DNA from: Escherichia coli
GTDB lineage: Bacteria > Pseudomonadota > Gammaproteobacteria > Enterobacterales > Enterobacteriaceae
Strand: one strand, 5' to 3'
Assembly: GCF_003334255.1 (NCBI RefSeq)
Contig: NZ_QOWU01000051.1
DNA: 41,368 nt
The notes under the pieces were generated by a model. That model ran no database searches and was not told the DNA's origin. It saw nothing but the letters and a program-made list of their open reading frames with translations. Made by a program: the position numbers and the translations under genes. Position 1 is the first letter of the stretch; each line of letters begins with the position of its first letter. Of the stretch, positions 4,788 to 35,129 are shown one piece after another.

Positions 4788-4869
4788 GGTCGGTGCACTT
4801 TAGGTGAAAAAGGTTGAGTCGCAAAGCGGAATGCATCTAGCATAAAGCCTTATTATTGATGAGGCTATC

Positions 4870-5898
4870 ATGCGCGTACTGCTATTTTTACTTCTTTCCC
4901 TTTTCATGTTGCCGGCATTTTCGGCTGATAACCTGTTGCGCTGGCATGATGCGCAGCATTTCACGGTGCAAGCCTCTACGCCGCTTAAAGCCAAACGCGC
5001 ATGGAAACTGTGCGCGCTTTATCCCAGCCTGAAAGATTCATATTGGTTATCGTTGAACTATGGTATGCAGGAGGCTGCTCGCCGCTACGGTGTGGATTTA
5101 AAAGTGCTGGAGGCAGGCGGCTACAGCCAGTTGGCTACCCAGCAAGCACAAATCGACCAGTGTAAACAGTGGGGCGCAGAGGCCATTTTGCTCGGTAGTA
5201 GCACGACCTCATTTCCCGACCTGCAAAAGCAGGTAGCAAGTCTGCCGGTGATCGAACTGGTAAATGCTATTGATGCTCCCCAGGTGAAAAGCCGCGTTGG
5301 TGTGCCCTGGTTTCAGATGGGCTATCAACCGGGGCGATATCTGGTGCAATGGGCGCACGGTAAACCACTGAATGTGCTGTTGATGCCCGGACCCGATAAC
5401 GCCGGGGGCAGTAAGGAGATGGTCGAGGGTTTTCGCGCAGCCATTGCCGGAAGCCCGGTGCGTATTGTTGATATTGCGCTTGGTGATAACGATATTGAAA
5501 TCCAGCGTAACCTGTTGCAGGAGATGCTGGAACGCCATCCAGAAATCGACGTCGTTGCCGGAACGGCCATTGCGGCAGAGGCGGCAATGGGGGAAGGGCG
5601 TAACCTGAAAACGCCGCTTACCGTGGTGTCGTTTTATCTTTCACATCAGGTGTATCGCGGGCTGAAGCGGGGAAGAGTGATTATGGCTGCCAGCGATCAA
5701 ATGGTCTGGCAGGGGGAACTGGCGGTTGAGCAGGCCATCAGGCAATTACAGGGGCAATCGGTTTCTGATAATGTCAGCCCACCGATTTTAGTTCTGACGC
5801 CGAAAAATGCCGACCGTGAACATATTCGCCGCTCGCTGTCACCAGGGGGATTTCGTCCGGTCTATTTTTATCAGCACACATCAGCGGCTAAGAAATAA
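4870..5898 (+). CDS. torT: Periplasmic TMAO-binding protein TorT
   Basis: 342-aa ORF with a signal peptide (MRVLLFLLLSLFMLPAFSA) and periplasmic binding-protein character; tor locus context. Confidence 0.95.
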   Translation: MRVLLFLLLSLFMLPAFSADNLLRWHDAQHFTVQASTPLKAKRAWKLCALYPSLKDSYWLSLNYGMQEAARRYGVDLKVLEAGGYSQLATQQAQIDQCKQWGAEAILLGSSTTSFPDLQKQVASLPVIELVNAIDAPQVKSRVGVPWFQMGYQPGRYLVQWAHGKPLNVLLMPGPDNAGGSKEMVEGFRAAIAGSPVRIVDIALGDNDIEIQRNLLQEMLERHPEIDVVAGTAIAAEAAMGEGRNLKTPLTVVSFYLSHQVYRGLKRGRVIMAASDQMVWQGELAVEQAIRQLQGQSVSDNVSPPILVLTPKNADREHIRRSLSPGGFRPVYFYQHTSAAKK

Positions 5899-6563: not shown

Positions 6564-6581
6564 CAGAGGGTTTTACTCATT

Positions 6582-6644
6582 CTGTTCATATCTGTTCATA
6601 TTCTGCCGTAAGCCGTTCATCCTGACCAGTGCCGCTGTTCATAT
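6582..6644. promoter_or_regulatory. tor boxes: four decameric direct repeats (TorR binding sites) in the torR-torC intergenic region
   Basis: ctgttcatat at 6582..6591 and 6592..6601, ccgttcatcc at 6613..6622, ctgttcatat at 6635..6644, directly upstream of torC. Confidence 0.75.
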
Positions 6645-6692
6645 TTGCTCATTAAGATCGCTTCACTAAACCATAATTCTACAGGGGTTATT

Positions 6693-11007: not shown

Positions 11008-11028
11008 CGTCGTTTGTGCGCCTGAAAA

Positions 11029-33456: not shown

Positions 33457-33601
33457 CCAGTAGAAACTAATGTCACTGAAATGGTGTTTTATAGTTAAAT
33501 ATAAGTAAATATATTGTTGCAATAAATGCGAGATCTGTTGTACTTATTAAGTAGCAGCGGAAGTTCCCGGCAGTGATAGTCAGTCACTATGGAGATCGCG
33601 G

Positions 33602-34666
33602 ATGGTAACGTCCTGTACTGGACATGTTTTAGATAATCAACGCGCCACCACTCGCGGAGTTTTCTCCTCCGGTAGTCATCTCGTCACTTTGCATTTTCAA
33701 CCTCATCCTTTCTTTTCATGTGTTACCGACGCCGTAAACGGTGCGCGTAGCCGTTTTTCGGCATTTTATCCAAAAGCAAACTATGGCTTACAAGGAAGCC
33801 AACCCTCTGATGTTCGTGCGCATAATCGCGCTGCCAACGGCGCGTGTGATGAATACAAACAACTCAAGGTGCTCTCCATGGGAAGACAAAAAGCAGTGAT
33901 CAAAGCTCGTCGCGAGGCAAAACGTGTGCTGAGACGGGATTCGCGCAGCCATAAGCAGCGTGAAGAAGAATCGGTCACCTCGCTTGTGCAGATGGGCGGC
34001 GTAGAAGCCATTGGTATGGCCCGCGACAGTCGCGATACTTCGCCCATCCTCGCGCGAAATGAAGCGCAATTGCACTATCTGAAGGCTATTGAGAGTAAGC
34101 AGCTGATATTCGCCACGGGCGAAGCCGGGTGCGGAAAAACCTGGATCAGCGCAGCAAAAGCGGCAGAGGCCCTGATACATAAGGATGTCGACAGGATTAT
34201 CGTCACCCGTCCAGTTCTGCAAGCCGATGAAGATCTTGGCTTCTTACCTGGAGATATCGCAGAAAAGTTTGCTCCCTATTTTCGCCCGGTCTACGACGTG
34301 CTGGTCCGGCGCTTAGGGGCTTCCTTTATGCAGTACTGCCTGCGACCGGAAATAGGGAAGGTGGAAATTGCGCCGTTCGCCTATATGCGTGGACGTACCT
34401 TTGAAAATGCAGTCGTCATTCTTGACGAGGCGCAGAATGTGACTGCCGCGCAAATGAAAATGTTTTTAACCCGCCTCGGGGAGAACGTGACGGTTATCGT
34501 CAACGGTGATATCACGCAATGCGATTTGCCTCGCGGCGTGTGCTCCGGATTAAGTGACGCGCTGGAACGTTTCGAAGAAGATGAAATGGTTGGGATCGTC
34601 CGGTTCGGTAAAGAGGACTGCGTACGTTCGGCACTTTGCCAACGTACGCTGCATGCCTACAGTTAA
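33602..34666 (+). CDS. phoH: Phosphate-starvation-inducible ATPase PhoH
   Basis: 354-aa ORF with a Walker A motif (GEAGCGKT); Pho box upstream. Confidence 0.9.
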   Translation: MVTSCTGHVLDNQRATTRGVFSSGSHLVTLHFQPHPFFSCVTDAVNGARSRFSAFYPKANYGLQGSQPSDVRAHNRAANGACDEYKQLKVLSMGRQKAVIKARREAKRVLRRDSRSHKQREEESVTSLVQMGGVEAIGMARDSRDTSPILARNEAQLHYLKAIESKQLIFATGEAGCGKTWISAAKAAEALIHKDVDRIIVTRPVLQADEDLGFLPGDIAEKFAPYFRPVYDVLVRRLGASFMQYCLRPEIGKVEIAPFAYMRGRTFENAVVILDEAQNVTAAQMKMFLTRLGENVTVIVNGDITQCDLPRGVCSGLSDALERFEEDEMVGIVRFGKEDCVRSALCQRTLHAYS

Positions 34667-34683
34667 GTGTGTTATCGGTGCAG

Positions 34684-34710
34684 AGCCCGGGCGAACCGGG
34701 CTTTGTTTTG
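34684..34710 (+). terminator. Intrinsic terminator downstream of phoH
   Basis: agcccgg-gcgaa-ccgggct stem-loop followed by ttgtttt. Confidence 0.6.
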
Positions 34711-34715
34711 GGTGT

Positions 34716-35129
34716 TTATGCCCGGACTAGCGCTTTTTCTGAAACAACCATTTTTATTTGCCCCTGGCTGGTGAAGTGTACGCTCATCCTGTGGCTTTTT
34801 TGTAGTTGCTGATAGAGCTCATCAGGTATTGCTAAGCTCTCTGCATATTCTTGCGGCGTATATTGGTAGGCTGCATGATGCTGCTGTTTTTGAAAACGCA
34901 GCTTATTGTACAGCGCCCAGACAATTAACACGACGGCATTCGCCACTGCCAGCAAAAAATAGAACTGAAGTCGGCTTCTGGCCTCGCTTTGCCAGTAATA
35001 ACCCGTCAGCAGATCCATGGCGAATAAGAATATGAACAACGCAAATAATGTCCACAAGATGGTTGTGGCAACATAATCAACCAGTAAACGTACTGGTGAT
35101 TGTCGGGTCGTAATAATTAAATTGTTCAT
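34716..35129 (-). CDS. pgaD: PGA biosynthesis protein PgaD
   Basis: 137-aa membrane ORF immediately downstream of pgaC. Confidence 0.9.

Follow-up and report, generated by a model that had tools for sequence, protein, structure and literature searches.

A native and ancient 28-bp tail-to-tail overlap of torT and torR in Escherichia coli, probably retained as a by-product of gene-end geometry

In the stretch of Escherichia coli DNA analysed here (41,368 nt of contig NZ_QOWU01000051.1, assembly GCF_003334255.1; hereafter the window), torT and torR lie on opposite strands and have 28 nt of their 3′ ends in common (5871-5898). The locus therefore raises the question of whether this overlap is genuine and native, what fixes its length, and whether it serves as a dedicated regulatory device. 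The open reading frame list of the window gives both genes. The torT 3′ end reads ...TAT CAG CAC ACA TCA GCG GCT AAG AAA TAA, and the torR 3′ end, on the other strand, reads ...GGT TAT TTC TTA GCC GCT GAT GTG TGC TGA. The junction is made up of the following features.

4870..5898, plus strand: torT coding sequence, periplasmic TMAO-binding protein, 342 aa
5871..6563, minus strand: torR coding sequence, OmpR-family response regulator, 230 aa
5871..5898, both strands: stretch coding on two strands, TorT Gln335-Lys342 plus stop and TorR Tyr223-Cys230 plus stop
5896..5898, plus strand: torT stop TAA, formed opposite TorR codon Tyr223 (TAT) and the final base of codon Gly222 (GGT)
5871..5873, minus strand: torR stop TGA, which reads TCA on the plus strand and spans torT codons Tyr334/Gln335

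Both partners are real protein-coding genes, as judged from equivalog scores above the cut-off, Pfam domains and PDB relatives, among them 1zgz, the E. coli TorR receiver domain. TorT scored 495 bits against the NCBIfam equivalog NF008185 (curated cut-off 200), and TorR scored 429 bits against NF008034 (curated cut-off 275). The alignment of TorT to Vibrio TorT (PDB 3o1h) extends to residue 332 of 342, and the Pfam Trans_reg_C match of TorR reaches residue 225 of 230 (L225), which lies inside the overlap. Identity between the window and MG1655 is 99.92%, and subtracting 1051391 from an MG1655 coordinate gives the window position. RefSeq annotates the identical 28-bp overlap in MG1655 (torT 1056261..1057289, torR 1057262..1057954) and the same torT/torR overlap in strain 300709.

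It is hardly conceivable that a mis-called stop or a frameshift has produced an apparent overlap. No point in favour of such an artefact was found, the stops come straight from the sequence, homology supports the TorT and TorR frames up to their C-termini, and the same arrangement recurs in thousands of independent genomes and in distant genera. The 3′ end of either gene is unmoved by the choice of start, so a re-annotated start would leave the overlap intact. Chance is likewise the wrong test here, since the overlap joins two verified genes whose stops are set by the sequence. A sequence-only reading of this DNA had placed a 28-bp convergent overlap at 5871-5898 and named a revised start or stop as the change that would abolish it. 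The overlap stands, both from the stops themselves and from the RefSeq annotation, and no plausible re-annotation removes it, as homology backs both frames nearly to their stops.

The distribution of the overlap was followed within and beyond the species. Of 5426 complete E. coli genomes, 5412 covered at least 80% of a 2.1-kb query around the overlap, and 5416 contained the 111 bp centred on it at an identity of at least 95%, with both genes annotated. The homologue listing for E. coli TorT comprised near-identical sequences only, nearly all from E. coli or Shigella. For the wider survey, a TorT alignment built from distant representatives was used to scan one genome per species, and the stop-to-stop distance was measured after locating TorR in each of 80 loci. 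The 28-bp overlap was found at 15 loci, which amount to about six lineages: the window, two other E. coli, E. albertii, four Citrobacter, a record titled Providencia vermicola, S. enterica arizonae and diarizonae, Pragia fontium, two Budvicia and Parendozoicomonas callyspongiae. In the last three taxa TorT is only 43-53% identical to that of E. coli. Serratia sp. H1w has a 21-bp overlap; the stops are separated by gaps of 18 and 51 bp in two Colwellia, 52 bp in Amphritea and 494 bp in two Aeromonas, and torR does not adjoin torT in Vibrio and Photobacterium. The torT-torR overlap is thus old, though not universal. Two real genes meet here tail to tail in a native and ancient overlap, and the earlier view of this as the native arrangement rather than something new is fully upheld by MG1655, strain 300709, the E. 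coli genomes counted above and the distant genera.

Two of the surveyed loci deserve a separate remark. Parendozoicomonas callyspongiae, a non-enterobacterial relative of Endozoicomonas (locus L061, 4948-4975), carries a TorT tail like those of Pragia and Budvicia, and its 28-bp overlap suggests that the arrangement is old or that the entire tor regulatory cluster was transferred. The record titled Providencia vermicola DSM 17385 has a TorT 71% and a TorR 89% identical to those of E. coli, nearer to E. coli than the Pragia and Budvicia proteins are, and both proteins, like the tail sequence, resemble those of Citrobacter. The assembly may be mislabelled or contaminated, or the locus may have been transferred. 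Protein length is also uniform at close range, with 342 aa in 118 of the 120 best-scoring listed TorT cluster representatives (90%-identity clusters). A 352-aa TorT with a differing tail (P0069) was set aside. It comes from a 2.3-kb Logan contig (ERR11042028_247194, 1040-1300) in which torT is fused within the overlap, at ...GCGGCTAA, to hcaR/hcaT DNA of a different chromosomal region, and it is most likely a chimeric assembly.

Why the overlap should measure 28 bp can be read from the ends of the two proteins. The TorR C-terminus, GEGY[FL][LF]xx[DE][VI]x-stop, has a constant length in all orthologues examined, overlapping or not, with 8 residues after the conserved Gly in every one of them. 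The first residues of this motif belong to the last strand of the winged-helix domain (Pfam Trans_reg_C), and the end of torR is set by protein function. TorT homologues align to about residue 332-334 (FRPVY), near which the conserved fold ends; the last 8-10 residues are a tail variable in length and sequence. Where the overlap measures 28 bp, the torT frame reaches torR without meeting a stop, and its stop is TAA or TAG in 15 of 15 loci. The antisense of the TAY codon for the TorR Tyr gives ..TA, and the third base of the preceding Gly codon completes the triplet, GGT giving A and GGC giving G. The torR stop itself is TAA instead of TGA in Budvicia. In the other two plus-strand frames of the window, stops would give overlaps of 21 bp or 65 bp, and the 21-bp frame, with its stop opposite a TorR Leu codon, is the case seen in Serratia sp. 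H1w. Since the length of the TorR tail after the Gly is fixed, the overlap is locked at 28 bp. The TorT tail within the overlap (Thr-Ser ... Lys/Asn-Lys) is the antisense of the conserved Asp/Glu-Val and Phe/Leu codons of TorR, so no selection of its own is needed to account for it. From these comparisons, protein constraints explain the length of the overlap in full.

A related possibility places the constraint on TorT, where folding, export or contact with TorS would require the ~10 residues that follow FRPVY, so that torT cannot shorten. At least two single-base routes would shorten or remove the overlap while sparing TorR. The change C5872T gives torT a TAG (TorT Q335stop) and converts the torR stop from TGA to TAA, leaving TorR untouched, and T5865A/G creates a stop upstream of the overlap, again with TorR untouched. 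The 15 loci and the 120 best-scoring TorT cluster representatives listed contained neither change, and no truncated TorT was found there despite these nonsense routes harmless to TorR. The probability that such alleles are absent by chance is about 5-10% as a rough estimate, which is suggestive only. Their absence could just as well reflect a need for the TorT tail at the protein level, and the enterobacterial model NF008185 does reach residue 339. Set against this, conserved TorR residues, read in antisense, determine the tail sequence within the overlap (T-S-x-x-[KN]-K), homologue tails elsewhere differ in length and sequence, the solved Vibrio TorT chain ends at a position aligned with TorT residue 332-333, and in-frame 2-codon deletions occur just upstream in two loci. 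A requirement for the tail is not exclusive of other readings, and we regard it as unlikely.

The cost of coding on both strands was estimated from the same 15 loci. The third codon positions of torT and torR coincide (5871, 5874 ... 5898), a geometry termed "phase 2" in one paper, and variation is concentrated at these sites. Mean column entropy was 1.16 bits at the shared third positions, compared with 1.30 at torR-only third positions; at non-third positions it was 0.32 in the overlap and 0.46 in the torR-only part. The overlap thus evolves much like ordinary torR coding sequence. Because the third positions are common to both frames, most silent changes in one gene are silent or mild in the partner, and the overlap costs little. 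At position 5898 all 15 loci have A or G, so that the torT stop is preserved opposite a torR Gly codon, GGT or GGC. This restriction is not significant and was not counted as selection, since it could simply reflect codon preference: GGY is favoured in general, and the independent lineages number only about six.

The consequences for transcription were considered next to these coding constraints, and the features that bear on them are as follows.

4788..4869, both strands: torS-torT divergent promoter spacer, with a shared IscR site, the HK022 attachment site and the torT transcription start
5439, minus strand: approximate centre of a Rho-dependent termination region, ~430 nt past the torR stop and inside torT, converted from MG1655 1056830
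5650..5727, minus strand: C-rich, G-poor RNA (C 42%, G 17%), 145-220 nt past the torR stop
6564..6692, both strands: torR-torC divergent spacer with the torR transcription start, its role taken from the literature

A scan with a terminator consensus found no terminator on either strand at or near 5871-5898 or after the stops, and RNA folding around the junction was no better than that of shuffled sequence (z-scores -0.08 and -0.48). A two-way intrinsic terminator, recognisable as a G+C-rich hairpin between an A tract and a T tract, is thus absent from the torT-torR junction. With neither a spacer nor a hairpin, each transcript must enter the other gene as antisense RNA. Rfam has no family near the overlap. 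A promoter-like match at 5813-5785 on the minus strand was not interpreted, as 3 such matches were found and 2.0 were expected from shuffles.

Published data place the end of the torR transcript well inside torT. Adams 2021 (PMC7815308, Supplementary file 2) recorded, at MG1655 1056830 of the minus strand, a region of Rho termination classed as antisense to torT. In the absence of bicyclomycin it had 39 reads upstream and 14 downstream, and with bicyclomycin 52 reads upstream and 81 downstream, with a Rho score of 4.3 and p = 2.2e-5 (PMC7815308). The method compares 800-nt windows, so that the position is approximate (PMC7815308). For torR and torT, the files of this study contain no Term-seq 3′ end and no plus-strand Rho region (PMC7815308). 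The C-rich stretch at 5650..5727 is, by its composition, a plausible candidate for the Rho loading site. ExcludonFinder 2025 (PMC12288877) lists torT-torR among 165 convergent excludons of MG1655 present in at least 50% of 58 transcriptomes, a listing that is near-automatic once both genes are expressed, since their coding sequences overlap. The sequence-only reading had also proposed that the two genes are transcribed into each other. The missing terminator-like hairpin, the published Rho region on the torR strand and the excludon listing all agree with that proposal. Its further suggestion, that this couples the expression of the two regulators, is speculative, and any such coupling is probably weak because read counts are low.

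On the side of the promoters, IscR is reported to keep torT and torS very low in air, and torT is derepressed once anaerobiosis lifts this repression. The torS-torT spacer also holds the attachment site of prophage HK022, and a prophage inserted there rewires torS expression (PMC6814406). This spacer measures 82 bp in the window, the uninterrupted length found in MG1655, so no prophage is present.

These observations bear on whether the overlap is kept for regulation. In that case convergent transcription, through collisions and/or RNase III cleavage of the duplex, would make the expression of torT and torR antagonistic, thereby adjusting the TorT:TorR ratio or the noise in the response to TMAO. 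The transcript overlap is indeed obligatory for lack of a terminator, torR read-through extends ~430 nt into torT, the pair is among the 165 listed convergent excludons, and the exact overlap is kept in about six lineages. Noise in the TorS/TorT ratio has moreover been published to matter for torCAD bet-hedging. Several points weigh against it. The papers examined report no experiment linking torT transcription to torR output or the reverse, and the supplements of a transcriptional-interference paper (PMC10349824) make no mention of torT or torR. The excludon listing follows from geometry for any pair with overlapping coding sequences. Reads are low and TorS/TorT are very scarce aerobically, so collisions should be rare. 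A spacer suffices in Colwellia, Amphritea and Aeromonas, relatives that have the TorT/TorR pair, Vibrio and Photobacterium manage without torR adjoining torT, and protein constraints fully account for the overlap length. Taken together, regulation as the reason for keeping the overlap is doubtful. A more specific form makes terminator-less convergent transcription itself the selected device, and hence the reason why 28 bp were kept from Escherichia to Budvicia and Parendozoicomonas; it would anticorrelate the co-sensor TorT with TorR and so shape torCAD noise and bet-hedging. We consider this form improbable.

The overlap is therefore probably best explained as a retained by-product of the geometry of the two gene ends and not as a dedicated regulatory device, with a transcript overlap that is unavoidable but weak. 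The torT frame, lacking a stop of its own, would enter the antisense of the torR 3′ end and halt at the first in-frame stop, the TAA or TAG opposite the conserved Gly-Tyr codons of TorR (GGY-TAY). The arrangement may have originated when a short spacer was lost, perhaps together with a two-way terminator, or when an older torT stop was lost. Read-through from torR is ended by Rho inside torT, as others have shown. Mutual interference between torT and torR transcription is probably weak, a judgement that follows from the low read counts in the region; given IscR repression in air and the low counts on the torR strand, collisions and duplexes should be rare. Conservation of the exact overlap over such deep divergence could alternatively reflect selection for the overlap.

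Compared with known systems, torT-torR belongs with the bacterial convergent overlapping pairs. About 75 such pairs have been published for one E. coli genome, and their accepted origin is movement of the stop codon. Like them, torT-torR consists of two verified genes on opposite strands with common 3′ ends. The length of its overlap is 1 modulo 3, which puts it in the same phase as the frequent 4-nt convergent overlaps and sets the third positions of the two genes opposite one another. With 28 bp it exceeds that very common class, and its exact length has been kept across families because the stop lies opposite the conserved Gly-Tyr of the partner. The pair is itself on the published list of convergent excludons, and its transcripts necessarily overlap; the reciprocal expression and RNase III processing that define excludons are putative for torT-torR. 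Here the overlap also involves the coding sequences, beyond the 3′ untranslated regions alone.

Two-way intrinsic terminators occupy the same position, the convergent junction, but in E. coli torT-torR has neither spacer nor hairpin, and termination on the torR strand is Rho-dependent and far inside torT instead of at an intrinsic two-way terminator. In a Colwellia MAG, the 51-bp spacer (locus L063, 4522-4574) contains a 9-bp hairpin, GCAAGTAGCA...TGCTACTTG. By its sequence this hairpin could act as a two-way terminator, which would fit the idea of an ancestral spacer. No hairpin was found in the 18-bp spacer of Colwellia 75C3. With respect to the suppression of antisense read-through by Rho, the torR case is one of many bicyclomycin-sensitive antisense regions, with nothing distinctive about it.

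The window contains further features of these kinds. Adams 2021 lists additional minus-strand Rho regions opposite torD, rutR and efeO, together with an orphan near pgaA, at about 10648, 23319, 31900 and 40901 of the window (MG1655 1062039, 1074710, 1083291 and 1092292). At least the first two (10648 and 23319) look like read-through from convergent neighbours (cbpMA and putA). A second convergent pair of the window on the ExcludonFinder list is phoH-pgaD (33601-35128, phoH 3′ end/pgaD). The Rfam antisense-RNA family Ysr251 matches with 189 bits at 34468-34661 on the minus strand, opposite the phoH 3′ end, and suggests read-through of the pga operon or a 3′ UTR antisense to phoH. Three known E. 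coli features were also matched at the Rfam gathering threshold: a cspA-type thermoregulator at 1-336 on the plus strand, cut by the start of the window; naRNA4 at 11019-11097 on the minus strand, between torD and cbpM; and ES036 at 16984-17026 on the minus strand.

The torT-torR overlap is already known from the reference annotation, the excludon list and the Rho table, and it is no new kind of system. As a discovery it has little importance, since both the overlap and the transcriptional overlap have been catalogued. It does carry a caveat for genetics at this locus: removing or replacing the whole of torR changes the C-terminus of TorT as well, and torR is interrupted by any fusion made to the 3′ end of torT. 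In one published strain a torT-lacZ fusion is combined with ΔtorR, and this may be due to the overlap. The case is instructive because the Gly-Tyr of the TorR winged helix supplies the stop of the opposite gene and thereby freezes the length of the overlap for a very long time. With its stop supplied by the antisense of TorR Gly-Tyr, the overlap has been held at 28 bp across several bacterial families.
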